From a virus (Duplodnaviria > Caudoviricetes): a stretch of 39,816 bases of DNA. Below, piece by piece: positions 301 through 39,766 of this stretch. Where the stretch lies: the IMG/VR virus record IMGVR_UViG_3300028585_000042, positions 1 through 39,816 of that record, one strand, 5' to 3'. How positions within the stretch are numbered: the stretch's first letter is position 1; every line of letters starts with the position of its first letter. Below the pieces are notes generated by a model, which saw nothing but the letters and a program-made list of their open reading frames with translations, made no database searches and was not told the origin of the DNA. The translations under genes and the position numbers were made by a program.

Positions 301-405
301 GTTTTTCGTCTCGGGATAGTATACCGAACTCCGAAGCAGGCTGCAGTGGCAGACGCCATGGCAGCCATTACACACGCAGTCCCCCTTAGGCTAAGAAAGA
401 GCGTT

Positions 406-1188
406 ATGACTCAAGACGAAGCGGTTGCTCTGTTGAAAGGGGACTTCGGTCGGGAGTTCATGCGAAATGTGATCAAGCACGTCATCCCTGTTTGCTGGGG
501 GTCCTATGAAGGTAGGACTTGGAGTGTTCATCAAAGTGGCACAGCTTTTCTACTGAACTGCGGGCTGGAAACGTTTTTGGTTACAGCAGCCCATGTGTAT
601 GAAGAATATTTATCCAGCTTGTCTAAAGTGACAGGGGTTCGGTCTTATGTTGGCGATGTGGAATTCGACTTCCAGGATCGCCTGATTGCGAATCTTGGCT
701 CGGACATCTTGGACATCGCGACATTCAGAATTTTAGAAAGTGAGATATCTCAATTAGGGAAGGACGTCTCTCACGGTCCTAAGGAGTGGCCGCCAGAACC
801 GGCTCAGCAGGACGACGGAGTAATATTTGCCGGATTTCCCGGTGTAGAGCGATCACATCATCAAGTTGCATCGACGCAAACAGTTTGCTTCGGGCTGTAT
901 GCCGGTCTGACCCCGGTAAACTCATCTAGTGAGCGCCACCTCGGGTGTGTTTTGGAGCGCGATGAATGGATTGACGCAATAGGGAAGGGGATCCCAGATG
1001 TCAATTACAACCTAGGTGGAACAAGTGGAGGGCCAGCCTTCCTTGTCCATGAGAGTCCAGCCGGTGTTATAACACGCACGATTACCGGGGTAATTTATAA
1101 CGCAACGGCAGGTGTTATGGGCGAGATCGTCCTGATCCACCATGTGCACTTTATCAATGCAGATGGCACATTACGCGCGCCTGCCTAG
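406..1188 (+). CDS. Trypsin-like (S1) serine protease, moron
   Basis: Catalytic-triad motifs GTAF..FLVTAAHV (His), LDIATF (Asp), GGTSGGP (Ser); lower GC than phage core; ATG406 preferred, ORF open from 346. Confidence 0.8.
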   Translation: MTQDEAVALLKGDFGREFMRNVIKHVIPVCWGSYEGRTWSVHQSGTAFLLNCGLETFLVTAAHVYEEYLSSLSKVTGVRSYVGDVEFDFQDRLIANLGSDILDIATFRILESEISQLGKDVSHGPKEWPPEPAQQDDGVIFAGFPGVERSHHQVASTQTVCFGLYAGLTPVNSSSERHLGCVLERDEWIDAIGKGIPDVNYNLGGTSGGPAFLVHESPAGVITRTITGVIYNATAGVMGEIVLIHHVHFINADGTLRAPA

Positions 1189-4114: not shown

Positions 4115-4212
4115 AGCGGCCACCCGTGGGCAATGGCCGAAGCGCACAGGGCGCAGTACAGCAGCACGGCGGCGCACTTCCACTTGATGGCTCGCAGGCG
4201 GTGTTCGTTCAT
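4111..4212 (-). CDS. 33-aa hydrophobic peptide
   Basis: MNEHRLRAIKWKCAAVLLYCALCASAIAHGWPL; start and stop overlaps at both ends. Confidence 0.45.
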   Translation of the reverse strand: MNEHRLRAIKWKCAAVLLYCALCASAIAHGWPL

Positions 4213-4619
4213 GGCATCTCCTCCAGCACGGCCAGCGCCGCGCGCAGCTTGGAGGCGGCCACCTTGCGGTCTCGGCGCGCCTGGTCGATCACATCGAGAG
4301 CGGCGCGCACGGTGAAGTTCGGCGCCCGGGCCAGTTCGTCGACCGGCATCTCGTACAGCGTGCGGATCTCGAACACGTCGGGCCGCGCCTTCGCATAGTC
4401 GAGCATTTCCTCCGTCTCGACGTCGACCCACTGGCGCAGCGGGTCGCTGATCACTCGGCACTGATCAAGCGCACTCGATGGCGTCAGTGGAGTGGCAGGG
4501 CCTGTCACGCCCGGGTAAGCGTGCTCCGCCAGGCGGCGCATCAGCTCGCGGTTGTCGGCGGCAGGGACGATGCGGTCACCTTCGCGGATCGTCGGCACTG
4601 CCTGGGTGGTGTCGGTCAT
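4209..4619 (-). CDS. Early protein carrying a copy of the tape-measure C-terminal motif
   Basis: 136-aa ORF with GAGGGA RBS; residues 11-31 IREGDRIVPAADNRELMRRLA match TMP 32586-32648. Confidence 0.8.
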   Translation of the reverse strand: MTDTTQAVPTIREGDRIVPAADNRELMRRLAEHAYPGVTGPATPLTPSSALDQCRVISDPLRQWVDVETEEMLDYAKARPDVFEIRTLYEMPVDELARAPNFTVRAALDVIDQARRDRKVAASKLRAALAVLEEMP

Positions 4620-4621
4620 CG

Positions 4622-4795
4622 TTATTCCCTCGGTTCGGTTGGGCGCGCGGCGGCGTGAGCTTTTTCGATCGCCACCTCGCGCTGGTAGCGGCTGGACTGC
4701 GTGTTGATGCGGGCCTGACGGATGGCCGCGCGGTCGGCCGGCGTCAGGGCCTGCTCGTCGGCGGTCAGCGCGCGGCGGCGCTTCTTCGTGGCCAT
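4622..4795 (-). CDS. 57-aa basic protein (not in ORF track)
   Basis: Manual translation MATKKRRRALTADEQALTPADRAAIRQARINTQSSRYQREVAIEKAHAAARPTEPRE; fills the operon gap exactly. Confidence 0.6.
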   Translation of the reverse strand: MATKKRRRALTADEQALTPADRAAIRQARINTQSSRYQREVAIEKAHAAARPTEPRE

Positions 4796-6603: not shown

Positions 6604-6888
6604 TCAGAACGGAAGTTCTTCCTCTGGTGGCGCGATGGACAGGTCCACTTCGACCAAGTCCAAATACTCCAGCTGGATCAGGGCCAGGATCACGTGCGTC
6701 TGGAAATTTGCATGCGCCCGAAATCCGTTTATCTCCACCGATACCAGCATCACGACATACACGCGGCAATGCCGCTCGATTCGTTTAATCAGATCGTCGC
6801 CGGCGCCAGGTACCGTGAATTCCGACGGCACGATCGCAACGAGGATGGGTGATCCGTAAGGCTCGATCTCAGCCACATGGATCAGCAT
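6604..6888 (-). CDS. Hypothetical protein translationally coupled to cI
   Basis: TAATG overlap with the cI stop; 94-aa ORF. Confidence 0.65.
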   Translation of the reverse strand: MLIHVAEIEPYGSPILVAIVPSEFTVPGAGDDLIKRIERHCRVYVVMLVSVEINGFRAHANFQTHVILALIQLEYLDLVEVDLSIAPPEEELPF

Positions 6889-7592
6889 TAAATAAAGTCG
6901 GCTTCCATCCTCACGACACGGCCAAGCACCTCTGTACTCTCGTCGACCGCTCGGCTGCGGAACTCGGGCTGCTTGTTGTCAGAGGCGAGGAACCAGGTGC
7001 CGCCGTTTAATTCCAGTCGCTTCACACAGGGCTTGCCGTTATGGTTCACCGCATACATGGCCCCGTCAATGAGCTTGTGCTTTTCCTTGTCAGCGGTGTT
7101 CACGATCACGACATTGCCCCTCTTGAGCGTCGGATACATGCTGTCACCGATCACCCGAATCGCCACCAGCGCGCCCGCAGGCAGGCCTTTCTCGATCACC
7201 CAGGAGCGCCGCACACTCAGCATCGTGTCTTCTTCAAATTCGAGATCGCCGTCAGCACCGTTCACGCCGGCGTGGATGTAGCGCGCGACCATGCGCACGC
7301 CAACGAAGTCGCCTTGCTCATCGTCAAACGATACTTTGACGAGTTCGCCCTCGGGTTCTCCAGGCGGTGGCGTGCGCTCCATTGGGCCGGTGCCGTCCAT
7401 CAGCCATTGAGTCGCGACGTTGCACGCCTCGGCGAGCGTGATGAGCGTGTTCATCTCGGGCCCTTTCTTTCCGGAGCCCTTCAAGATTCGATTGATTGTC
7501 GGCTGCGGAATGCCTGAGGCGCGAGCAAGCGCACTCTGCGACACGATGCCTGCCGCCTGCATTGCCTGGTCCAGCCTGGATGAAATAGTCAT
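6888..7592 (-). CDS. cI: CI-like repressor (HTH + S24 autopeptidase)
   Basis: SQSALARASGIPQPTINRIL HTH; HAG cleavage site; GDSMYP (Ser) and CVKRL (Lys); divergent from cro. Confidence 0.93.
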   Translation of the reverse strand: MTISSRLDQAMQAAGIVSQSALARASGIPQPTINRILKGSGKKGPEMNTLITLAEACNVATQWLMDGTGPMERTPPPGEPEGELVKVSFDDEQGDFVGVRMVARYIHAGVNGADGDLEFEEDTMLSVRRSWVIEKGLPAGALVAIRVIGDSMYPTLKRGNVVIVNTADKEKHKLIDGAMYAVNHNGKPCVKRLELNGGTWFLASDNKQPEFRSRAVDESTEVLGRVVRMEADFI

Positions 7593-7598
7593 CCTCGG

Positions 7599-7676
7599 AC
7601 TATACGCGGGCGTATAGCTCGCACACAACATGCTATTCATTTGTGGATTGCTTTCCTATCCATTCGCGTATAGACT
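7599..7676. promoter_or_regulatory. OR switch: three 18-bp operators (7600-7617, 7633-7650, 7656-7673) with divergent PRM and PR
   Basis: CTATACGCGGGCGTATAG, CTATTCATTTGTGGATTG, CTATCCATTCGCGTATAG; PR TTGCTT-N17-TAGACT; PRM TTGTGT-N18-TATAGT on minus strand. Confidence 0.8.
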
Positions 7677-10869: not shown

Positions 10870-11084
10870 CCACCGCACACGACCCCTGCGCCTTCTGCGA
10901 GCGCTTCAAGGCGACATTGCGCGCTGACCTGCCGGCCGGCCACGGCTGGTGCATCGGCCACGAGCAGGAGAGGCTCTGGGACTATCACCCGTGCCCGCTG
11001 TTCAAAGAGGCAAAAGACCGGGCGCCGCGTGCGCGGTATGTGGCGCAGCAGCAGGCACAACAACAAGAATTGGAGAAAGCATGA
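10866..11084 (+). CDS. Small Cys-rich hypothetical protein
   Basis: CAFCERF..GWC..PCPLF; ATGA overlaps at both ends. Confidence 0.6.
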   Translation: MTTAHDPCAFCERFKATLRADLPAGHGWCIGHEQERLWDYHPCPLFKEAKDRAPRARYVAQQQAQQQELEKA

Positions 11085-12016
11085 GCATCATCCACGTGGT
11101 TTCGTACTCGACCGGCAAGGATTCACAGGCCACATTGAATCTGGCGGTAGAGATATTCGGAACAAAGAACGTTCGCGCCATCGCATTGGACACGGACAAC
11201 GAGGACGAGGCTTTCCATAAGCACCTGGACTACACACGATCAGCTATCGGCGTCGAAGTCGTTGTCTTGAAAGCAGACTTCTCCGAGCATATGGAGGTCC
11301 ACCGTCAGCGCCTTCTGGCTATTGCCGCAGGAGCGCCAGACTACCATCCGCAGGCGAAATACCCCTGGACGCCGGAGCGTGCGGCGCAGGCAGCCGAGTT
11401 GATGCATCCGACTGGCAATGCCTTCCTCGACCTGTGCATGATCAAAGGCGTATTCCCGTCCCATAGCCGCCAGTTTTGCACTGAAGAGCTCAAGCGAAAC
11501 GTCGCAGTTGAGTATCAGCTTGACCTCGTCGATGCTGGGCACACCGTTGTGTCGTGGCAAGGTGTTCGCCGCGACGAATCGAAGCGCCGCGCCAATGTCG
11601 CCAAATTTGAGCGAATCGGCCCGCGGATGTATGCCTACCGCCCGATTGTCGACTGGACTGCCGAGCAAGTATTCGAATACATCGCGTCCAAAGGTCAAAA
11701 GCCAAACTCACTCTACAGGCGCGGGATGTCCCGTGTCGGTTGCATGCCCTGCGTCAACGTCAACAAGGACGAGCTCAAGCAGATCGCCTTGCGGTTCCCG
11801 GAGCACATCGATCGGATCGCGAAGTGGGAAAAGATCGTAAAGAGCGTCAGCCGATCAGGCATGTCGTCATTCCTGCATACCGGTCAGGCAGGTGGCACCG
11901 ATATCTGGGAGCGTGTCGAGTGGTCGAAAACCACCCGGGGCGGCCGGCAGTTCTCGCTGTTGACCGATCTAGAAGATGCCAATGCCTGCGCTTCGGCGTA
12001 TGGCCTGTGCGAGTGA
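11081..12016 (+). CDS. PAPS-reductase-family (PP-loop, Fe-S) protein
   Basis: SYSTGKDS PP-loop, FCTEELK, QGVRRDES..R, RPIVDWT, SRVGCMPC. Confidence 0.85.
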   Translation: MSIIHVVSYSTGKDSQATLNLAVEIFGTKNVRAIALDTDNEDEAFHKHLDYTRSAIGVEVVVLKADFSEHMEVHRQRLLAIAAGAPDYHPQAKYPWTPERAAQAAELMHPTGNAFLDLCMIKGVFPSHSRQFCTEELKRNVAVEYQLDLVDAGHTVVSWQGVRRDESKRRANVAKFERIGPRMYAYRPIVDWTAEQVFEYIASKGQKPNSLYRRGMSRVGCMPCVNVNKDELKQIALRFPEHIDRIAKWEKIVKSVSRSGMSSFLHTGQAGGTDIWERVEWSKTTRGGRQFSLLTDLEDANACASAYGLCE

Positions 12017-21392: not shown

Positions 21393-23948
21393 ATGGCGAT
21401 CACCCAGCAAGCAGTAAAACTTCGCCCGAACGAGGCTTATAACGGCGGCTCGTCTGGCCTGCGGACTTGCTGGTACAAATTCGAATTCGATGCCCCGTTC
21501 GACCAGGTTCAGCACCTGATCGGCAGTAAAGTCGTTTCGGGTACGCCTGGCACCTACAAGGTGCAATTCGCCGTGACCGACGCTATTGCCGTCGATACGG
21601 TGAATAACGCATGGGTTCCGATGCGCGCCGGCGTGGCTTATAACGACAAATCCGCGAATGGCTGGAAAGACGCGACATTCGCTGGCGCTGCGACAAAACA
21701 AATCGGGCTGGCGCCGAACGTAGGAAATAACAACGGCTGCATCCACATGTCTACCGACGTGATGGACTTGGCGAGCGTGCCGCGGGCGGACGGCAAGCCG
21801 GGCAGTATCTTGCTGGTGAAGGTAGTTCAGATCGATTCGGCCGGCGGCTATACGCAAGGCAGCAGTAACAGCAGCGCGTGGGACTCCGCACGAGGTGCTC
21901 AACTGTGGTTCCGCGAGTGGTTCTGTAACGCTCAAAGTAACGTTGACGGTATCGCGAACCTGGCTACGCTGCCTTCGGGTACGCCGTTCAACGGTGACTA
22001 TGCATTCCCTGGGACGCCGATCGTCACCAATACGGCATCGGCCCTTCCTACAGAATTGCTGCTGTTCACGGGCGATAGTCGCAAGTCTGCTGCGTACAAC
22101 ATCAACCGGTTCGCCAGTCCGGCGCGCATGGCGGCCATGTCGCTCAGCACCCCGGCCCGGCCAATCAGTACCGTCAATGCTGCCGGCTCGGGGCATACGC
22201 AGGCAAACTATTTGCTGCTGGCGCTGGACCAAATCGACGCGGGTGTGCGGCCTACCGTGATCCACCTGCCTGGTTTCAGCCAAAACGGGTTTTCCTCATT
22301 CGCCAATTTCAAGACGGCGAATGACAACTTCATGGCCGCAGTGCGCGCGAAGCCGGGCCTGAGCAACGTCAAATTCGTATTTGACACCGACTACTACGTG
22401 GGCGGGTACAACGCGGCGACGGAAGCCGCTCGCCAGCAGTGCATCGCGTACGCCAAGTCCCTGGCAAACGGTACGACCGTGTTTTGCTTCGACAGTGATG
22501 CGATCATCACTGACTACACGAACCCGAGCGCTCCGACATTTAAATCCGCATATTTCACATCGCCGAATTTTATTGGCGGTGATGGTGTTCATGCGGGGCC
22601 CACCGGCCTCGACGCGATGACATATGGGGACGGCACCACCCCGGGACTGCAATCGGTTTATCGAGCCGCATTTGGTCTGGATGCGCCCGCTGCTGACACT
22701 ACCGCCCCTGTTATGACGGGCGCCATCACGGTCAGCGGTCAAACCTCCAGCGGCTTTACCCTTGCATGGCCCGCTGCAACCGATGCCGTGGGCGTCACCG
22801 GGTATGAGGTCGACAACGGTAGCGGCGCGTACGCGAGCGTTGGCACTGCGCTGACACTCGTTGTAACCGGCAAAACCGCTGCAACTGGGCATGCTGTCCG
22901 GGTGCGTGCAAAGGATGCGGCCGGCAATTACGCGACGCCGCTCACCGCTACCGCGACGACATCGGCCGCCGCCGACACGACCGCACCAGTGATGACCGGC
23001 GAGATCACGGTGTCCGCCATCACCACGTCAGGCGCCACGCTGTCGTGCTCGGCAGCGACCGATGCAGTCGGCGTCACTGGCTACGAATTCAGCATCGACG
23101 GCGGCACGAGCTACAGCCTGATCGCCAATGCTGCCCGGTCGGTGGTGGTTTCTGGCCGGCCTGCAAGCACCGTGCACTCGGTGCGGATGCGCGCCTTCGA
23201 CGCCGCTGGCAACCGCGCCACGCCGCTGTCGGCGAGCTTCACCACGCTGGTCGAGCAGCCTGCGCAGAATGCGGTGACGGCCTCGACGGTGGCGGAATCC
23301 CGCCGGGTGGCATTCCCAGGCGGCACGCGCGTGGTGGCGTTTGGCACTGTGCCGAGTGCGCCTATGCTGAACGCACCATACCTGGAAGCGGGGAAGTGGT
23401 GGTGCGCAAAACACCCGCTCGACGAGCGGTACTGGGTGGCCAACATCACGGTCGACCTGGACGAGCGCAAGACCACTGCTGTGTCCGTCGAGGTGATCGC
23501 CGCCGGCGTGACGGTGCTTCAGCAGCCGGTCATTCAGGGCAAGCTGATCCCGGTGAAGCTGGGCGGCTTCAATGCCGCCACCGGCGCGGCCAACTTCTGC
23601 ACGTTCCGCGTCACGTGCGCGAACGGCGAGCGGTTCGACCGCACGATCTGGTTCAAGCAGCAGGTGGGATCGTGGTCGCTCAACAAGGATGCGGACGACG
23701 AAAGCTACTTCGTGGCCGACATCAGCAACGACCTGGCCGACAGCAACACCACCGCAAGCGCGGTGCTGGCGCAGCCGGTCGGCGTGAGCGTGCTGGTGCC
23801 AGCGGTGATCCAGGGTCCTTTGATCCTGGTGAAGCTGGGTGGCATGGACACCTTGCCGGCCGGCGTCAATTACTGCGACCTGCGCATCGACTGTGCGAAC
23901 AGCGAGCGCTTCTACCGGACCATTCAATTTAACAGGGTGGACAACTGA
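21393..23948 (+). CDS. Virion fibre-like protein: SGNH hydrolase + 2x fibronectin III + 2x adaptor-like domains
   Basis: SGNH blocks FTGDS, AGSG, GFSQN, DGVH; two DTTAPVMTG..ATDAVGVTGYE..VRxxAxDAAGN FN3 repeats; C-terminal duplicated KHPLDERYW/KDADDESYF..ERFxRTI. Confidence 0.8.
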   Translation: MAITQQAVKLRPNEAYNGGSSGLRTCWYKFEFDAPFDQVQHLIGSKVVSGTPGTYKVQFAVTDAIAVDTVNNAWVPMRAGVAYNDKSANGWKDATFAGAATKQIGLAPNVGNNNGCIHMSTDVMDLASVPRADGKPGSILLVKVVQIDSAGGYTQGSSNSSAWDSARGAQLWFREWFCNAQSNVDGIANLATLPSGTPFNGDYAFPGTPIVTNTASALPTELLLFTGDSRKSAAYNINRFASPARMAAMSLSTPARPISTVNAAGSGHTQANYLLLALDQIDAGVRPTVIHLPGFSQNGFSSFANFKTANDNFMAAVRAKPGLSNVKFVFDTDYYVGGYNAATEAARQQCIAYAKSLANGTTVFCFDSDAIITDYTNPSAPTFKSAYFTSPNFIGGDGVHAGPTGLDAMTYGDGTTPGLQSVYRAAFGLDAPAADTTAPVMTGAITVSGQTSSGFTLAWPAATDAVGVTGYEVDNGSGAYASVGTALTLVVTGKTAATGHAVRVRAKDAAGNYATPLTATATTSAAADTTAPVMTGEITVSAITTSGATLSCSAATDAVGVTGYEFSIDGGTSYSLIANAARSVVVSGRPASTVHSVRMRAFDAAGNRATPLSASFTTLVEQPAQNAVTASTVAESRRVAFPGGTRVVAFGTVPSAPMLNAPYLEAGKWWCAKHPLDERYWVANITVDLDERKTTAVSVEVIAAGVTVLQQPVIQGKLIPVKLGGFNAATGAANFCTFRVTCANGERFDRTIWFKQQVGSWSLNKDADDESYFVADISNDLADSNTTASAVLAQPVGVSVLVPAVIQGPLILVKLGGMDTLPAGVNYCDLRIDCANSERFYRTIQFNRVDN

Positions 23949-27323: not shown

Positions 27324-30300
27324 ATGAGCGATACTGTCAACAACGCAACAATCATGATCACCGCCGACGCGAGCGGCGTCGAGGCTGGCTTGCGCAAGGT
27401 CGAAGACGCGACCGCCAAAACCGGCAAGAGTCTCGACAACCTCGAGGCCAGCGCGAAGAAAACGACGGCAGCCCTGGAAGGTGTCGCCAGCACGCCAAGC
27501 ATGGAGACGGCCGGCGACGGCGCCGGAGTGGCAGCAGGTCGCATGGACAAAGCGACCAAGAACATGGCCGACTCGATCCAGCGCACGCTGGCGACCATGA
27601 ATGCTGGCGCCAAAGGTTCGGCGCAGTACTACGAGGCCCTGGCGAATTCGCGCGGGCTGAACGTCAATGCCCTGCGTCCGTACTTGGAACAGCTGGATGA
27701 AATGACGAAGAAGAGCGCGCTCGCGGCTGATGCCCAGCGCAAGCTCGACGACTCGACCAAGTTCCTCGACAGCCTGCGCTCGAGCACCGAGGGTATCGGT
27801 AAGTCCGCGTCCGAGCTGGCCGCCCTGCGCGCCGAGCAACTGGGCGTGAGCGACGCTGCGGCCGACATGATCGCCAAGCTGCGCGAGCAGGAGCAGGCCG
27901 GCGAATCGTCGTTCGGCAGCCTGGCCGATCTGGCAGAGGGCGCCAAAGTCGCGTTTCTGGCTGTCGCTGCTGCCGTTGCTGCGGCTGCCGCCGCTGGCGC
28001 CGTGATGGTCGGTGATGCCCTGAACGACCTGGCTGATCTCGATGGGATGGCACAAAAGACCGGATCTTCGGTCGAGAGCCTTTCCAAGATCCAGAAGCTT
28101 GCCGTAGTGTTTGGCGAGGATATGGGTGGTGTCGACGCTGCAATTGTAAAGCTGTCGCGCGGCATGGCTGGCTTGGACGACGACAGCAACAAGGTCCAGA
28201 AAGCACTCAAGACGCTGGGCATTTCATCGCGGGATGCCGCAGGCAACTTGCGCGATCCGTCCGTTGTCCTGGTTGATGCTTCGAAAAGCCTTCAGAACTA
28301 TCGCGACGACGCCGGAAAAACGGCGCTCATCAACGATCTTCTGAGCAAGTCTGGCGCGGATATTCTGCCGTTCTTGAACGACCTGGCAGAAAACTATGAC
28401 GGGGTTGCAGGTACTTCGGGTGAGGCCGCCGCCGCAGCCGCTGCGTTCCAAGATCAAATCGGATTCCTGAAGATCGAAGTGAAGAGCCTCGCCACATCGG
28501 CCGCGGTTGCGTTGGCTCCGGCGCTGCGAGATTTGGCCGGCGCTTTCTCTGACGTATTCAAACAGCAGACCCCGATCAAGAAAGGCGAGTGGTCGTCGTG
28601 GGCTGACGATCTCGGGCTGGGCTTCGCGAAGGCATCGGACGCGGTAGCGACGTTTGCGCGATCCACCGGTGTCGCGTGGGACGTGCTGAAGGGCGTCCGG
28701 GCCGGATTCGCTGTCGTGAATGACATCGCGCTTATCAGCCCGGTGGAAGCTATTTACGAATCGTTCAAGGGGGGCGATGGACTCAAGGACGTCAAGAAGT
28801 CGTTTGCCGATTTAAGCCAGGCTATCGCAGACGGCGTGAAAAGCGTTGAGGATATCAATAGCGCTCCTTCGGATCAGTTCCAAAAGGCTTATCTTGCGCG
28901 CCTGGCCAATCGGGGAGCCCCGGCGGCTTCGCCGAATGCGGGGGATGGCGACAAACCGAAGCCAGGCCTGCCGCGAACGGTTGACGACTCGTCAGCGAAG
29001 AAGGCAGCGCAAGAAGCCGAGAAGGCAGCCAAGGAATACGCAGCACTGGTCGACCGCATCAATGGCAAGAGCGTCGGCATCGATGCTGATTTCTATAGCA
29101 ACTTGAACAAGCTGTACGACGGGTACAAGGGCGGCAAGCAGTCGCTGCAGGATTACGTCGACACGGTCGAGACATACATCGGCCAGCAGCAGTTCGTGAA
29201 GCAGGCCGAAGATGAGCGGCTGAAATCGCTGGAGAAGTACCAGAAGGCGCTCGATGGTGCCAGCACCGGCGCCGACAAGGCGACCAAGGACCTGCAGGCC
29301 CAGCGCGACGAAAACGAGCAGATTGGTCTGGCGAAGGATGCACTCGGCGAATTGAATGCGACGCGCATCGAGGGGCTGGCCTTGCGTGCCGAAGAGCGTA
29401 TCTGGGCTGCAGAGGGCCTCGACATCACCGGCGCGCTGGCTGAGGAATACCGCAAGGAAGCGGCCGCGCTGCGCGAGCGTGCGCAAGCGGTGCGCGAGGG
29501 CGCTGTAAAGCAGGTGGGATTCGACGCGGCCAAGAAAGCCGGCGAAGACCTCGACAAGTTCCTGGACCCCACGAAGGCGCAGACGTTCGGTGATGCGCTG
29601 AAGGGCGCGTTCGGCGCGGCCGGCGATTCGATGACGCAGCTGGTCACCGCGCTGGACGCTTACGGCATTCGCCAAGCCGAGGTCGACAAGGCTCGCCAAG
29701 ACGCGTCGGTGAAGTATGCAACCGATTCCAAGGGCCTGGCCGAAGCTAACGCTGCGATCAACTCGAAAGAAGTGAAGTCGCGCCTGAGCGGCTACGGCGA
29801 CATGGCCGCAGCTGCAAAGGGCTTCTTCTCCGAGGGCAGCAAGGGCTATGGCGTGCTGACCAGCGTCGAGCGCGCGTACCGCGCCACCGAGCTGGCCATG
29901 GCGCTGTCGACCATGACGAAGAAGATCTTCTTCAAGCAGACTGAGGTGGTGGCCAACACGGCGCTGAACGCGACCAAGATCACCGGCGAAGCGGCAGCCA
30001 CCGCAGCGTCGACCGGCCTGGCCGCAACCGAGGCGAGTGCCTGGGGCGTCACGGCGGTGGTCAAGGCCATGGCTTCGCTGCCGTTCCCAATGAACCTGGC
30101 CGCCGGCGCAGCCACGCTGGCGGCTGTCGTGGCCATCGGTGCGAGCATCATGGGCGGCGTGGGTGCCAGCAGCGTTCCACTGTCCCAGCAGCGGCAGGAA
30201 AAGCAGGGCGCCGGCAGCGTGCTGGGCGACAGCTCGGCGAAGTCGGAATCGATCGCCAACTCGATCGCTGCCATCGAGGGCGCTACGCTCCAGGGCCTGC

Positions 30301-32834
30301 GCATCAGCGATGGGATGCTGGCGTCGCTGCGCAACATCGAGGCGGGGATCGGGCAATTCGCATCGTTCCTGGTGCAGTCCACCGGTGTGGCAGGCGATTA
30401 CGGCAAGCAGTTCGCTTCGGCCGATGGCAACTTCCTGAGCAAGATCGGGAGCAGCATCTTCGGCGGCAAGAAAACGGTGGAAGACACGGGCTTCCTGCTG
30501 ACGAAGGCGTCGTTCGAAAGCATCCTGAACGGCGGCACCGACGCGGCGCAGTATGCGGACATCAAGAAGTCGGGCGGCCTGTTCTCGAGCGGCAGCTCGA
30601 GCAGCAAGATCGAAGGCCTGGGCGCCGAGGGCAACCGGCAGATCGCCGGCGTGCTCACGTCGCTGTATCAAACCGTCATCGATGCCAGCAGCCTGATCGG
30701 TATCGGTGGCGATGACTTCACCGCCAAGCTCAGTTCGTTCGTGGTCGACATCGGCAAGGTCAGCCTGAAGGGGCTGACCGGCGCCGAGATCCAGGAAGAG
30801 CTGTCGGCCGTCTTCTCGAAGGTGGGCGATGACCTGGCGGCGTTCGGTGTCGATGGCCTGGGCCAGTTCCAGCAAGTGGGCGAGGGTTATCTCGAGACGC
30901 TGTCCCGCGTGGCGACCAATTACCAGGCCGTCACCGTGGTCACGGATTCGCTTGGCATGGTGTTCGACTCGGTCGGGCTCAAGTCGGTCGGCGCGCGCGA
31001 GCGGCTGGTCAGCCTGGCCGGCGGGCTGGAGGAATTCACTTCCAGCGTCGACCAGTTCCTTGCCGATTTCTACACCGACAAGGAGCGGGCCGACTCGCTG
31101 CGCGCGCGTATCACGCCGACGCTCGACCAGTTCGGCATCAAGACCGGCGCCGAGGATTCGCTGAAGCAGTTCCGCGGCGTGGTCACCGGGCTGGACCTGA
31201 CGACCGAAGCCGGCGCGCGGGCGTACGCGGCGCTGATGCAGATCGCCCCGGCGTTCAAGCAGATCGCCGACGTTGACAAGGACGTGCTGGAGAAGGCAAC
31301 CGACCTGACCAACAGCAAACGTGAACTGGAAATCCAGATCATGGAAATGCTGGGCGACAAGGCTGGCGCGCTGGCGGCCACCCGCGCGCTCGAGCTCGGT
31401 GAAATGGACGCGTCCCTGCGCCCACTGCGTGAGCGTGTGTATGCACTGGAAGACGAAGCCGCTGCGCTCGGTACGGCCAACTCGCTGCTGTCGATCCAGG
31501 CTCAGATTTACGAGCTGACCGGCGACAAGGCTGGCGCTGCAGCGGTGCTGTCGCAGCAGCACATCAACGCCCTGACCGCGCTGGATCCGGCGCTGCGCGG
31601 TGCGACGCAGAACCTGTGGGACCTGCAGGCCGCCGCCAAGGCAACCGAGCAGGTTAAGACGGCTGCAGCCGCGCTGATGTCCGGCGTGGATGGCGCGTTC
31701 TCGGCGCTGCAGAAGGTGGTCGAGCGGCAGAAGAAGGCGACGCAGGAAGAGATCGACGTGCGCACCAAGGCCGTCGAGAAGACCCGGTCGCTTTCCGAGG
31801 CGCTGCGCAGCACGCTGGACGGGCTGACTGTGGCTGGCACGGAGAAGAACGACCGCGCCGCCGCCCAGGCGCAGATCCAGGCAGCACTGGCGATCGCCAA
31901 GGCCAGCGGCATCCTGCCGAAAGCTGACGACCTGAAGAACGCGTTGTCGGTGATCGGCAAGGATTCGACCGGCCTGTTCGCCAGCCAGGAAGACTACCTG
32001 CGCGACTTCTACGCGACCAAGAACGGCATCACCGACTTGGCCAAGATCACCGACAAAACACTGTCGGCGGAAGAGCGAAGCCTGAAAGCGCTGGAAGGGC
32101 AGGTCAAGCAGTACGACGACATGCTCCAGCGCGAGCAGGAACAGATCGACGTCCTGAAGGGCATCAGCACGATTGGGCTGTCGATCGAGCAGGCCATCCA
32201 GGCGCTGCACGGTGCGATGGGTGCGGCGGGTGCAAACCCGTACAACTCGGCCACCAGCCAGATCAGCGATGCCTACAAGTCCAGTCTCGGCCGTGCGCCG
32301 GATGCGGCAGGGCTGAGCTACTGGCAGGACCGGGCCGCCGGCGGAATCTCGACCGAGGCCATCATCGGCTCGATCAAGGGTTCGCCCGAGGCGCAGATCC
32401 AGGCGCTCTACAAGGACGTGTTCGGCCGCCCGGCTGACTCGGCCGGACTGAGCTACTGGATCGACCGGCTCAAGGGCGGCATCAGCCTGGGCTCGATCCG
32501 CGACACGTTCGAGGACAGCGCCGAGAAGAAGCTGCGCGGGTTTGCCGTCGGCACGAACTATGTGCCCGCCGACATGCCGGCGAAGATTCACGAAGGCGAG
32601 CGCATCATCCCCGCGGCTGACAACCGCGAGCTGATGCGCCGGCTGGCCAGCCCGGGCGAGAACAGCGCCGTGCTGGTCGCAGCCGTCGAGCGCCTGACCG
32701 AAGAGAACCGGGGCATGCGCAAGGATCTGAACGACGCGCTGTATGCGATCGCGAAGAACACGATGAACACGGCCAGCTCGCTGGACGACGCACTCAACGG
32801 CGAAAAGCCACTTGCCACGAAGGTGATTGCCTGA
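27324..32834 (+). CDS. Tape measure protein with C-terminal DUF4214-like repeats
   Basis: 1836 aa, Ala-rich helical; follows the chaperones; C-terminal FAVGTNYVP..IHEGERIIPA motif. Confidence 0.92.
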   Translation: MSDTVNNATIMITADASGVEAGLRKVEDATAKTGKSLDNLEASAKKTTAALEGVASTPSMETAGDGAGVAAGRMDKATKNMADSIQRTLATMNAGAKGSAQYYEALANSRGLNVNALRPYLEQLDEMTKKSALAADAQRKLDDSTKFLDSLRSSTEGIGKSASELAALRAEQLGVSDAAADMIAKLREQEQAGESSFGSLADLAEGAKVAFLAVAAAVAAAAAAGAVMVGDALNDLADLDGMAQKTGSSVESLSKIQKLAVVFGEDMGGVDAAIVKLSRGMAGLDDDSNKVQKALKTLGISSRDAAGNLRDPSVVLVDASKSLQNYRDDAGKTALINDLLSKSGADILPFLNDLAENYDGVAGTSGEAAAAAAAFQDQIGFLKIEVKSLATSAAVALAPALRDLAGAFSDVFKQQTPIKKGEWSSWADDLGLGFAKASDAVATFARSTGVAWDVLKGVRAGFAVVNDIALISPVEAIYESFKGGDGLKDVKKSFADLSQAIADGVKSVEDINSAPSDQFQKAYLARLANRGAPAASPNAGDGDKPKPGLPRTVDDSSAKKAAQEAEKAAKEYAALVDRINGKSVGIDADFYSNLNKLYDGYKGGKQSLQDYVDTVETYIGQQQFVKQAEDERLKSLEKYQKALDGASTGADKATKDLQAQRDENEQIGLAKDALGELNATRIEGLALRAEERIWAAEGLDITGALAEEYRKEAAALRERAQAVREGAVKQVGFDAAKKAGEDLDKFLDPTKAQTFGDALKGAFGAAGDSMTQLVTALDAYGIRQAEVDKARQDASVKYATDSKGLAEANAAINSKEVKSRLSGYGDMAAAAKGFFSEGSKGYGVLTSVERAYRATELAMALSTMTKKIFFKQTEVVANTALNATKITGEAAATAASTGLAATEASAWGVTAVVKAMASLPFPMNLAAGAATLAAVVAIGASIMGGVGASSVPLSQQRQEKQGAGSVLGDSSAKSESIANSIAAIEGATLQGLRISDGMLASLRNIEAGIGQFASFLVQSTGVAGDYGKQFASADGNFLSKIGSSIFGGKKTVEDTGFLLTKASFESILNGGTDAAQYADIKKSGGLFSSGSSSSKIEGLGAEGNRQIAGVLTSLYQTVIDASSLIGIGGDDFTAKLSSFVVDIGKVSLKGLTGAEIQEELSAVFSKVGDDLAAFGVDGLGQFQQVGEGYLETLSRVATNYQAVTVVTDSLGMVFDSVGLKSVGARERLVSLAGGLEEFTSSVDQFLADFYTDKERADSLRARITPTLDQFGIKTGAEDSLKQFRGVVTGLDLTTEAGARAYAALMQIAPAFKQIADVDKDVLEKATDLTNSKRELEIQIMEMLGDKAGALAATRALELGEMDASLRPLRERVYALEDEAAALGTANSLLSIQAQIYELTGDKAGAAAVLSQQHINALTALDPALRGATQNLWDLQAAAKATEQVKTAAAALMSGVDGAFSALQKVVERQKKATQEEIDVRTKAVEKTRSLSEALRSTLDGLTVAGTEKNDRAAAQAQIQAALAIAKASGILPKADDLKNALSVIGKDSTGLFASQEDYLRDFYATKNGITDLAKITDKTLSAEERSLKALEGQVKQYDDMLQREQEQIDVLKGISTIGLSIEQAIQALHGAMGAAGANPYNSATSQISDAYKSSLGRAPDAAGLSYWQDRAAGGISTEAIIGSIKGSPEAQIQALYKDVFGRPADSAGLSYWIDRLKGGISLGSIRDTFEDSAEKKLRGFAVGTNYVPADMPAKIHEGERIIPAADNRELMRRLASPGENSAVLVAAVERLTEENRGMRKDLNDALYAIAKNTMNTASSLDDALNGEKPLATKVIA

Positions 32835-34492
32835 TGATCATTGTTGATCCAGTAGTGCTAGGGGATGTGCCGTTCACGCGGGCATCCCCCAAGTGGGTGT
32901 ATGACCGGACCGGCACGCTTGTCCAGGTGCCGGCCAATACGGTGGGCGTCACATACGATCCCGCCGACCTGAGCAAAGCGCCGTGGGCGCTGCTTGAGCC
33001 GGCGGCGATCAACCGCATCCGCAACAACACGATGCAGGGCGCGGTCGTTGGTACGCTGGGCTCTGGTGGTGCTATTCCTACTTTTTGGCAAACAGATTTC
33101 GGCGCCAATCAAAAGATGGAAATCCTCGATATTCAGCCTGATGGAACCGGCTTCGCCTACATGGATGTCCGTCTTTATAGTGCGGCCAGCGACCGAGGAT
33201 ATCTTGCAATTTACCCTGAGCCAACTCATAGCAGCAGCAGCCTGAACTCAGCAGTAGTTGCAGAAGGTCAGGCATGGTATTTTTCGCAATATATAAAGCA
33301 CATTAACGGCGTCCTACCGGGCAATGTGCAAATGACTGTGCGAGCGGTTAATGGGGCAGGCGCAGGTATTTCGGACAGTGCAAGCGGTCCGTTGAATATC
33401 GCAGGAGTTAATGCCCCTATCCGAATGACTCGGCAATCTATTTCAATGCCATCGACTCCTGCTGGAACCGCACGACTTGACTGCTTCCTGATTATTTTTA
33501 TTACGCCAGGACAGCCGTACGATTTCACTCTCCGTATCGGGCTTCCACAAATTCAGCGTGACCGCATCGACAGCCCGATCAAAACGAGCGGGAGCGCTGT
33601 CACCCGCGCTGCTGACGTGGTGGGCGCCGGCGCTGGCCTGGTGTATTCGAATGTGCCGATGGTCGAGCCGCCTTACAACGTGGCCACGACCTACGCGAAA
33701 GACGCGGCGGTGTACGACCCGACGACGAAGATCGTCTACTGGTCGATGGTCGCAGGGAATGTCGGCAAGGCCCTGAGTGACCCGGCGTTCTGGAACAAGC
33801 GTACTGCGATCAACCGCTGGGCGATGTTCGACGACCGCAACAGCACGCAGACCAGCAACCCGGAAGAGATCGTGTCCGTGTTCTCAGCGCAGGCAATCAC
33901 GCAGGGCCTGTTCGCCGGCGCCATGGATGCGAGCGAAGTTCGGGTTTCGATGACGCACCCGACGCGCGGCCTGGTATTCAGCGAGACGAAAAGCCTGGTG
34001 CTTCCGCGCTCGGGCAGCAGCTTCTTCGGCTGGTGCTTTAACCGGTTGCGACTGCGCACCTGGTTCCTGACGCTGAAGCTGCCGGTATTCGCGAATGCCC
34101 TGGTCACCGTCACGATCAAGAAACCCGGCGGCGTGCCCAAGTGCGGCATGTGCCTACTGGGTCCGACGGTCGATGTCGGCCTGTCGCTGATGGGGCTGTC
34201 GACCGAGCTGAAAGATTACTCGACCACCACGTTCTTCACGGACGGGTCGAGCTCGACGGTCGAGCGCGGCTTCTCGAAAAAGATGAGTGTCGATATCTCG
34301 GTCGAAAGCGACCGCGTCGAGACGATCGAAGATGACCTGATCAAGCGCCGGCAGAAGACGCTGGTGTTTCTGGGCTCGACCATGCGTGGCGACACGATGC
34401 TGGTCGGCCGGTTCAGTAGCCTGCGCAAGGTGATCGACTCGTTCCCGCGCTCGAAGATGGCCTTACAAATTGATGGAGTATTGTCCCAATGA
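32834..34492 (+). CDS. Tail-tip protein with inserted spike/fibre-type domain
   Basis: TGATG coupled to TMP; FTRAS..LLEP..N and SAVTRAAD motifs bracket a lower-GC insert; conserved-looking C-terminus NRWAMFD..DYS..VERGFSK. Confidence 0.7.
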   Translation: MIIVDPVVLGDVPFTRASPKWVYDRTGTLVQVPANTVGVTYDPADLSKAPWALLEPAAINRIRNNTMQGAVVGTLGSGGAIPTFWQTDFGANQKMEILDIQPDGTGFAYMDVRLYSAASDRGYLAIYPEPTHSSSSLNSAVVAEGQAWYFSQYIKHINGVLPGNVQMTVRAVNGAGAGISDSASGPLNIAGVNAPIRMTRQSISMPSTPAGTARLDCFLIIFITPGQPYDFTLRIGLPQIQRDRIDSPIKTSGSAVTRAADVVGAGAGLVYSNVPMVEPPYNVATTYAKDAAVYDPTTKIVYWSMVAGNVGKALSDPAFWNKRTAINRWAMFDDRNSTQTSNPEEIVSVFSAQAITQGLFAGAMDASEVRVSMTHPTRGLVFSETKSLVLPRSGSSFFGWCFNRLRLRTWFLTLKLPVFANALVTVTIKKPGGVPKCGMCLLGPTVDVGLSLMGLSTELKDYSTTTFFTDGSSSTVERGFSKKMSVDISVESDRVETIEDDLIKRRQKTLVFLGSTMRGDTMLVGRFSSLRKVIDSFPRSKMALQIDGVLSQ

Positions 34493-35187
34493 CCCAGATC
34501 ACAGCACTAAGCGACCCCGCGCAAATGCCGAACCAGCTGGATGACCAGGCCACGTTCGATGCAAAGATGGCCGGCTTCATCGATAACATGCCGGAGCGCG
34601 CGCGGCAGGAGAACGCGCTGGCTGGCGAACTGAACGACCTCGCTGGCGGCGTCACCACCAATGCGGCCGCAGCCGCAGCCGCCGCGCAGAGTGCTGAGGC
34701 GGCCAAGCTTGCGGCGATCGCGGGTGCCAGCGCTCCGGCGTGGGTCAGCGGCACGACCTACGCGAAGAACGTTCAGGTGATCAGCCAGGTGAACTTCCAG
34801 CCGTACCGCCGCCAGGTGGCCGGCGCCGGCACGGTCGACCCAGCGAACGACACTGCAGGCCAGTGGATGCCGCTGTTTGGTACCGGATCATTCACGCCGC
34901 GCGCTGCTGCGTCCGCGACATTCGACCTGTCCACCACCAACTTCTTCACGCGCGCGATGTCAGCGAGCGAGACGTGGGTGTTCGCGAACTGTCCGACCAA
35001 CGGCTTCAGCTTCGGTATCGAACTGACCTACACGGGCGGCACGCTGACGCTGCCGAGCACGGTCAAGACCGTCAACAACGTGGTCTATTCGTTCGTGGCT
35101 GGCAAGACCTACCTGCTGCTTTTCGTCACGACGAACAAGGGCGCCACTCGCTGGCGCATGGTGGCCACCGAGCCCTACGACAACTAG
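34489..35187 (+). CDS. Tail fibre/receptor-binding structural protein
   Basis: N-terminal ITAL..P..ATFD anchor, Ala coil, WVSGTTYA carbohydrate-binding-like motif, beta-rich C-terminus. Confidence 0.7.
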   Translation: MTQITALSDPAQMPNQLDDQATFDAKMAGFIDNMPERARQENALAGELNDLAGGVTTNAAAAAAAAQSAEAAKLAAIAGASAPAWVSGTTYAKNVQVISQVNFQPYRRQVAGAGTVDPANDTAGQWMPLFGTGSFTPRAAASATFDLSTTNFFTRAMSASETWVFANCPTNGFSFGIELTYTGGTLTLPSTVKTVNNVVYSFVAGKTYLLLFVTTNKGATRWRMVATEPYDN

Positions 35188-35193
35188 GCCAAT

Positions 35194-36015
35194 ATGGACG
35201 ACACCATTTTCAAGATCATGTTCGGCGCGATCCAAGGCCCGTCGGGACAGGCGGCCTGGACTACTCCGGGGACCTATTCATGGATCGTTCCTGCGCGCGT
35301 CTTTTCGATCAGTCCCCTGTGCGTGGCCGCCGGCGGTGGCGCTCGCAGGTATGACTCTTCGGTGGGAGGTGCTGGCGGTGGCGGTGGCGGCCTGCGGTAC
35401 GCGAAGAAGATCGCTGTCATGCCCGGCGAAACTCTGACCATCGTCGTTGGCGCTGGTGCTACGGGGGCAAACGGGGGCGTCACAACTATCAGCCGCGGGT
35501 CGACGATTCTTCTGCAGGCGACCGGTGGCGTGGCGGGCGCGAACTTCCCGGGAGCTGGTGGTGAAGGATCGACGCTTGACGGGAACATCGGCGGTGGCAA
35601 CGGCGGCAGCGGCGGGTCGAAGGGCGATAACCAGGTGGAAGGTGGTGGTGGTGGTGGTGCTGGCGGATATTCAGGCAATGGCGGCAGGGCATACATCCCG
35701 AGCGAGCCGGGGTCTGGCGGTGGCGGCGGTGCAGGCGGACGTGGGTTCAATGTCAACCCTGGCGCTGCAGGCGGCGGCGTTGGTATTTTTGGCGAGGGTG
35801 CCAGCGGCATCGCGGGCGTAAATGGTCCCCCTGCAACTGTGGGCGGATCAGGTTCGGGCGGCATCCCAGGAGCTACCAGCACTGATCCGGGACTTTACGG
35901 CGGCGGTGCCGGAGGGCGAACTTCAACTATCTCGCTGGCTGGCGCAGGCGGTGCTTGCCGAATTATTTGGGGCTCTGGCCGAGAGTACCCGTCAACCAAC
36001 ACGCAGGACATTTAA
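35194..36015 (+). CDS. Glycine-rich adhesin-like tail protein
   Basis: TTPGTYSW.VP..GGGG and many polyglycine motifs, ending GACRIIWG. Confidence 0.75.
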   Translation: MDDTIFKIMFGAIQGPSGQAAWTTPGTYSWIVPARVFSISPLCVAAGGGARRYDSSVGGAGGGGGGLRYAKKIAVMPGETLTIVVGAGATGANGGVTTISRGSTILLQATGGVAGANFPGAGGEGSTLDGNIGGGNGGSGGSKGDNQVEGGGGGGAGGYSGNGGRAYIPSEPGSGGGGGAGGRGFNVNPGAAGGGVGIFGEGASGIAGVNGPPATVGGSGSGGIPGATSTDPGLYGGGAGGRTSTISLAGAGGACRIIWGSGREYPSTNTQDI

Positions 36016-39634: not shown

Positions 39635-39689
39635 TTTCACTATCCGAAATATTCAGATTCGCTTAACTACTTGAATCTAAATGAATTCT

Positions 39690-39737
39690 TGGGGTGGCTG
39701 ATGGGGCTCGAACCCACGACAACAGGAATCACAATCC
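39690..39737. repeat. att core, right copy
   Basis: Identical to 140-187. Confidence 0.97.
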
Positions 39738-39766
39738 TGGACTCTACCAACTGAGCTACAGCCACC
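39690..39766 (-). tRNA. tRNA-His(GUG)
   Basis: GGTGGCTGTAGCTCAGTTGGTAGAGTCCAGGATTGTGATTCCTGTTGTCGTGGGTTCGAGCCCCATCAGCCACCCCA: G-1, GUG anticodon, encoded CCA. Confidence 0.97.

Follow-up and report, generated by a model that had tools for sequence, protein, structure and literature searches.

A short copy of a virion-assembly motif within a non-structural protein has been described for the satellite SaPI1, whose CpmB protein carries a motif of the 80alpha scaffolding protein, binds the capsid protein at the scaffold's site, as seen by cryo-EM, and requires this motif (PMC5644958). Prophage conflicts at tail assembly are described for Tab and anti-Tab of Pseudomonas phage JBD26 and for Tai (PMC10884400, PMC11364771). 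Tab has a late anti-Tab partner and is made constitutively from a promoter of its own, located between the terminase genes, and sensitivity to it maps to a region at the C-terminus of the tail tape-measure protein (TMP), such that a decoy of this region would have a target (PMC10884400). Escape from Tai has been mapped to the central fibre or to the needle (PMC11364771). The TMP is also the phage protein sensed by the STAND receptor Avs18, for which a central helical segment of ~130 residues, not the C-terminal motif, is reported to be necessary and sufficient (PMC13581612). Lambdoid exo-xis genes, such as that for Ea22, are early leftward genes found before xis, and the Ea22 protein is made up of a short N-terminal segment, a coiled coil and a phage-variable part (PMC10834534). 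With regard to the TMP itself, residues ~690-817 of lambda gpH are reported as not resolved in virions, its cleavage site and catalyst not being known (PMC12617516), and only the last 33 TMP residues were built in the JBD30 virion (PMC11445458).

The locus described here belongs to the virus record IMGVR_UViG_3300028585_000042, all 39,816 nucleotides of which were analysed and are termed the window. The window reads as a lambdoid prophage, with integrase, excisionase, CI-type repressor, terminase, head, tail and lysis genes all present (Table 1), and we infer Massilia or close kin as the host, since the nearest TMP C-terminus is found in Massilia sp. MP_M2 (L077). The gene under study, P0001, and the other leftward genes are termed early because of their position relative to the CI-type repressor, and by this position only. 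Both the location and the ribosome-binding site of P0001 fit an early gene of the exo-xis type; at most 0.07 of the words of the region occurred in any RNA run, and promoter and terminator scans gave scores at chance level. P0001 matched no family in Pfam or PHROG and differs in this from Ea22, for which the available description in turn mentions no TMP-derived piece (PMC10834534). Like CpmB, P0001 is a non-structural protein with a short copy of a virion-assembly protein motif. Unlike CpmB, it is encoded by the phage itself, relates to the tail and not to the capsid, holds half of a motif, is often absent and is known from sequence alone. Of the properties of the CpmB kind, the short assembly-protein motif and purifying selection were found, and family-wide retention was not (13/30 whole). 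Situated between repressor and xis, within the leftward operon, P0001 lacks the late-operon position and paired anti-gene of the Tab and Tai layout, and the descriptions of these two systems, as far as available, mention no TMP sequence copy, which sets P0001 apart (PMC10884400, PMC11364771). An earlier note on this DNA had proposed, among other roles, that P0001 could titrate a defence sensor; for Avs18 this proposal found no support, the only TMP match in P0001 being a 21-residue C-terminal piece and not the ~130-residue central segment. No description of a TMP peptide heading early proteins was found in the literature covered (titles and abstract openings in an open-licence library).

Table 1. 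Features of the window that bear on P0001 and its TMP-like peptide.
Feature	Position	Strand	Remarks
att-like repeat	131-187	no strand	partner 39682-39737 overlaps tRNA-His 39690-39765
Integrase and excisionase	1204-2629	minus	close off the leftward operon
33-aa gene downstream of P0001	4111-4212	minus	slot marker; start overlaps P0001 stop
P0001, 136-aa gene	4209-4619	minus	leftward operon, CI-type repressor on one side, xis/int on the other
P0001 core	4212-4493	minus	small beta-beta-alpha-beta unit and long helix; occurs with TMP-type leader, older leader or none
RR-h-x-[DE] signature of P0001	4524-4538	minus	residues 28-32; common to the slot's older leader type
TMP-derived peptide of P0001	4527-4589	minus	residues 11-31
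57-aa gene upstream of P0001	4622-4795	minus	slot marker in relatives
Shine-Dalgarno-like hexamer of P0001	4626-4631	minus	ATG 6 nt further on; from sequence
CI-type repressor	6888-7640	minus	phrog_4
Tail tape-measure protein (TMP)	27324-32834	plus	1836 aa; DUF4214 repeats near C-terminus
First TMP motif half (FAxG part)	32541-32585	plus	15 codons; in no early copy
Donor-type motif half in TMP	32586-32648	plus	~80 residues from TMP end

The protein-level copy of a TMP motif that the earlier note had described in P0001 was confirmed, with 18/21 residues identical between the two peptides. The 63 nucleotides differ at 10 positions, comprising seven synonymous changes and three replacements (R/H, D/E, V/I), the flanks are unrelated, and the copies are in inverted orientation, all as had been noted. 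By self-blastn of the window the match covers 67 nt (85% identity; E 1e-14; tblastn E 4e-8), and an all-against-all comparison of the six-frame ORFs of the window returned it as the sole inter-ORF match besides that of two frames over the att/tRNA repeat. Of the TMP motif, the second half alone is found in P0001 (GERxxPAADNxELM homology); the 15 codons of the FAxG half were not copied, and the His of the TMP motif is replaced. A recent duplication of the phage's own TMP DNA is ruled out by the 85% identity and by the same junction in distant carriers, and is contradicted furthermore by 5 of 93 other TMP motifs that are closer to the P0001 copy and 13 that are equally close. The 7:3 ratio had been taken as a sign of selection on the peptide. 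Comparing P0001 with the TMP is insufficient for this, because the synonymous changes could have accrued in the TMP line, and the part of the claim that stands is the purifying selection observed among the early copies themselves (below).

A degenerate pattern for the motif matched 71 stretches in viral contigs, namely 69 TMP C-termini and two early genes, and TMPs account for 17/17 genome loci with the motif and, among the matches listed, for 40/43 metagenome loci. It is near-invariant in the TMPs of Massilia-type prophages, as the patterns used partly demanded, and its His is present in every aligned TMP row. No Pfam family matched the TMP C-terminal FAxG...HxGE motif; a related motif is presumably carried by residues ~690-817 of lambda gpH. 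In the window, two DUF4214 stretches lie directly ahead of the C-terminal motif of the TMP (27324-32834), as they do in many related TMPs. As the peptide is nearly invariant, the likeness of the P0001 peptide to its cognate TMP represents a likeness to the TMP family. The P0001 copy differs from its own TMP at 9 of 60 bases, compared with a median of 12 across TMPs, and is as such closer than the median without being closest. Among the four records with both copies, 5, 12, 33 and 78 of the 93 distinct TMP motif DNAs are nearer to the early copy than is the phage's own TMP. Co-variation of the peptide with the cognate TMP, as the decoy proposal would have it, was not seen in the four pairs, a test of low power, given how little this peptide varies among TMPs. 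In all four carriers with a long enough record the TMP has the motif, and 5/8 non-carrier genomes matched it too, thus pairing the same TMP motif with no early copy.

Searches for the early family yielded eight proteins and seven representatives, and a leader profile search added at least four non-TMP carriers among the best 120 of 458 matches. Wherever the DNA was readable, the gene occupies one slot flanked by the same pair of small genes, with L159 sharing the upstream one only. In the contigs of four DNA runs, the flanking slot genes occur more often than the P0001 body, and in one contig of run X9 a stretch of 409 other bases replaces the P0001 gene (window 4225-4659) between the same flanking genes. 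A core-domain tree of 30 sequences, from which seven duplicates or near-duplicates were left out (P0002, P0003, P0005, P0006, P0008, P0012 and P0017), includes 13 with the whole motif, 12 with an older leader that ends in an RR-h-DD type signature, four leaderless sequences and one (L179:3001-3396) in which an in-frame deletion removes about half of the motif and provides a natural loss-of-motif control. Retention of the motif by homologues, on which the earlier note had made its proposal depend, was thus not observed, 16/30 sequences being without it and one having half.

Neither is the motif restricted to one type of protein. Eight core-domain genes, none with the motif, were found in 110 genomes of the genus Massilia, and one more genome encodes an Rv2179c-like 3'-5' exonuclease (PF16473, E 2e-47) headed by a diverged form of the motif. 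Exonucleases of the PF16473 family with the motif are P0016, P0018, P0019 and L169, and L231 is an exonuclease of this slot that has the older leader instead. The motif therefore heads two unrelated bodies, the small core domain and the exonuclease, both of which also occur without it. The core domain was not found in 119 Duganella-type genus genomes. A tblastn search of the leader against 50,697 GenBank phages returned two weak matches, one to a TMP and one to the strand opposite an exonuclease, both attributed to chance. Near-identical bodies exist with and without the motif (P0021/L158, L166/P0013 and, at the C-terminal end, P0009/P0017), so that the leader represents a swappable allele, and such natural allele pairs constitute clean experimental material. 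In the core tree, which recombination makes unreliable, the motif is scattered over at least five places, a pattern that could stem either from gain and spread or from repeated loss. The presence of the older leader in the most distant relatives suggests that it came first, recombination weakening the tree on this point.

The junctions point to a common origin of the early copies. A Pro lies two residues ahead of the motif in 21/21 early copies and 0/89 TMP contexts (in 45 TMP contexts it lies three ahead), 11 of the 21 carriers being from the close group of P0001. Placement of the ten early DNA copies in one clade was not rejected (p-AU 0.86), a weak test over 60 columns. As judged from these alignments, the TMP peptide was likely captured a single time, by the N-terminal leader of a single gene slot. 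The RR-h-x-[DE] signature is present in 21/21 carriers and 7/86 TMP contexts, with the acidic residue two places past RRL, as in the older leader; these counts are partly built in, for the carriers because five of them (L166-L170) came from a pattern that required the motif and the acidic residue, and for the older leader because the RR signature served to define it. The FAxG half occurs in no carrier and the His in 1/21, and E5, I7, P9 and N13 are retained in 19-21 of the 21. In the exonuclease-fused copies A10, A11, D12 and M17 are changed, though their own TMP keeps them. RR-h-[DE]D followed by Trp also opens the otherwise distant slot proteins P0014, P0015, L159 and L231, and this signature could itself act as a short binding motif.

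The copy of the TMP piece is real, old and under selection, but it is also accessory and partial, and it is not coupled to the TMP of its own phage. The reading that we prefer, with a probability of about 0.42, is that the TMP piece was co-opted as a putative flexible and swappable docking leader, which retains the older RR-h-x-D/E signature of the slot, rather than as a TMP decoy. A 20-codon piece of a TMP would have been captured once by illegitimate recombination and grafted into an older N-terminal leader, the capture presumably being aided by brief similarities at its two ends (Pro-x-hydrophobic ahead, Arg-Arg behind), and recombination would then have spread the grafted leader between slot alleles. 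The leader would be flexible when free, with its helix binding a putative partner, most likely the one already served by the older leader, in which case the resemblance to the TMP would tell of its origin more than of its function. Several observations fit an autonomous, TMP-like binding unit at least as well, namely the constraint on codons 1-13, which the older leader lacks, the changes in the exonuclease pair, all of them synonymous over codons 5-20, the stronger conservation of the motif than of the core across body types, and the motif being the only element that three different sequence contexts have in common.

Among five close alleles, which came from the whole-protein searches, the selection on the peptide claimed by the earlier note is upheld, with seven synonymous and three replacement changes in 20 codons (dN/dS 0.14; binomial p 0.0035) and p 0.007 for the motif codons of the same alleles in a GC-biased neutral simulation. 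The rest of the gene is likewise under purifying selection in these alleles (57 synonymous, 19 replacement; dN/dS ~0.12), and constraint on the motif does not exceed that on the remainder (0.14 vs 0.12; Fisher p 0.71). Over all ten early DNA copies, five disjoint pairs gave a ratio of 0.31 (interval 0.14-0.64). For the TMP-specific codons 1-13, five synonymous and three replacement changes were counted among the five close alleles (p 0.023), and 10 and nine, respectively, when pooled within groups (p 0.006). The exonuclease pair differs by five synonymous changes and no replacement over codons 5-20 (p 0.002), and the L166/L170 pair shows no constraint (one synonymous, three replacement). Constraint on the motif is as such seen in two of three within-group comparisons, with small counts and several overlapping tests. 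The seven codons directly ahead of the motif are unconstrained (ratio 2.2). Across body types pN is 0.11-0.24 for the motif vs 0.34-0.50 for the core, and this low motif divergence may stem from either stronger constraint or later spread. Pairwise pN/pS is 0.35 for early copies vs 0.16 for TMP copies, the early copies thus being looser, with both sets partly found by the motif.

Structure models were made of P0001 and of the TMP C-terminus. In the P0001 model (22 sequences; pTM 0.39), residues 11-40 have a pLDDT of 47-54, the peptide forming, at low confidence, a coil followed by a helix at residues 21-32, and most blocks of the core, a small beta-beta-alpha-beta unit with a long helix, have a pLDDT of 73-89. 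The low values suggest that the leader is not firmly packed on its own protein. In the TMP C-terminal model (75 sequences) the motif (pLDDT ~75) is likewise coil then helix, and leads into a long coiled-coil helix. Fold searches of P0001 gave no BFVD match at E 0.001 and generic long-helix matches only in the PDB (Z up to 5.6), and the TMP C-terminal model had no BFVD match at E 0.001 and no informative match in a PDB sequence search.

The main rival to the docking leader is a TMP mimic, because the TMP-specific half of the motif is constrained on unrelated bodies. The leader would bind whatever binds the TMP motif and, made early, would titrate away a Tab-like inhibitor that acts on the TMP C-terminus, or would occupy the site of the motif in the tail assembly of a co-infecting related phage; as an accessory weapon, its presence or absence would be expected to vary. 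Selection on the TMP-specific codons, retention of the peptide on two unrelated bodies and with three linkers, the near-complete conservation of E5, I7, P9 and N13 and the motif-bearing TMPs of 4/4 testable carriers all favor this explanation, as do the mapping of Tab sensitivity to the TMP C-terminal region (PMC10884400) and the precedent of CpmB, a short copied assembly motif that competes with the original (PMC5644958). It is disfavored by the missing motif half and His, the exonuclease-fused copies altered at A10, A11, D12 and M17 unlike their own TMP, early copies that do not track their own TMP, the absence of a copy from phages with the same TMP motif (5/8 non-carrier genomes matched) and the unconstrained L166/L170 pair. 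Moreover, a strong tail-assembly competitor would hurt the phage's own tail, and Avs18 is described as reading a central 130-residue TMP segment, with Avs sensors using broad interfaces (PMC13581612). We regard a mimic as less likely than the docking leader. From the decoy proposal of the earlier note there remain a copy that is real, old, in frame and selected; its specificity for the cognate TMP does not, and the copy is often absent and has drifted in the exonuclease fusions.

A broader form of this explanation, which we hold to be equally tentative, is that temperate phages reuse the TMP peptide as a portable N-terminal tag on unrelated early proteins, where it would bind the partner of the TMP and serve as bait for a blocker or as a poison of rival tails. 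Were this true, the tag would be a ready probe for the role of the TMP motif in tail maturation. Should the peptide bind the TMP's partner, counter-defence or interference between phages would furthermore have gained a new form, and light would be shed on what a TMP region left unresolved in the described virion structures does (PMC12617516, PMC11445458). If no TMP partner is bound, the locus would still show the origin of new N-terminal modules in the poorly understood exo-xis type region. It represents in either case a traceable capture of a virion-protein peptide into an early gene, spread over unrelated bodies and kept by selection.

The leader could also be a tolerated passenger, a harmless N-terminal extension moved between alleles by recombination, with a low dN/dS that reflects general constraint, such as solubility, turnover or translation start. 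The 16/30 core sequences without the motif and the one with half of it, the 0/8 core-domain genes with it in the 110 Massilia-genus genomes, the low pLDDT of the leader, the weaker constraint than in TMPs (pN/pS 0.35 vs 0.16, in sets partly found by the motif) and the lack of constraint in one of the three within-group comparisons would all be expected of such a passenger. A harmless extension is disfavored by a dN/dS among the alleles from whole-protein searches that is as low as in the folded core (p 0.0035; simulation p 0.007), and by the unconstrained seven codons directly ahead of the motif (ratio 2.2), and we consider this explanation unlikely. A virion-loading or localisation tag, by which the peptide would use the TMP docking site and bring the small protein or exonuclease to assembling tails for the next infection, is very improbable, since an N-terminal, flexible leader portable between unrelated cargo proteins, and contacts left open by the matching part of lambda gpH, reported as not resolved in virions (PMC12617516), have to be set against a leftward-operon gene that would be expressed before tails form, a tail lumen described as filled by the TMP (PMC11445458) and the existence of the same cargoes untagged.

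Several further genes of the window were noted. A trypsin-like protease gene (346-1188, plus strand) is located between the att repeat and the integrase; its protein scores 20.3 bits against PF13365 (cut-off 27.6) and matches no PHROG, and it is a possible cargo or defence gene. An 851-aa protein, which contains two fibronectin-III-like repeats as well as another internal repeat of a second kind, is encoded at 21393-23948 (plus strand), with head/connector genes on either side, and is possibly a head decoration or fibre. The tail-tip genes at 32834-36015 (plus strand) include no named hub or central-fibre family, and the 552-aa protein among them matched phrog_6278 as its sole family and no solved structure. 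A PAPS-reductase family gene (phrog_424) follows the antirepressor at 10949-12016 (plus strand).
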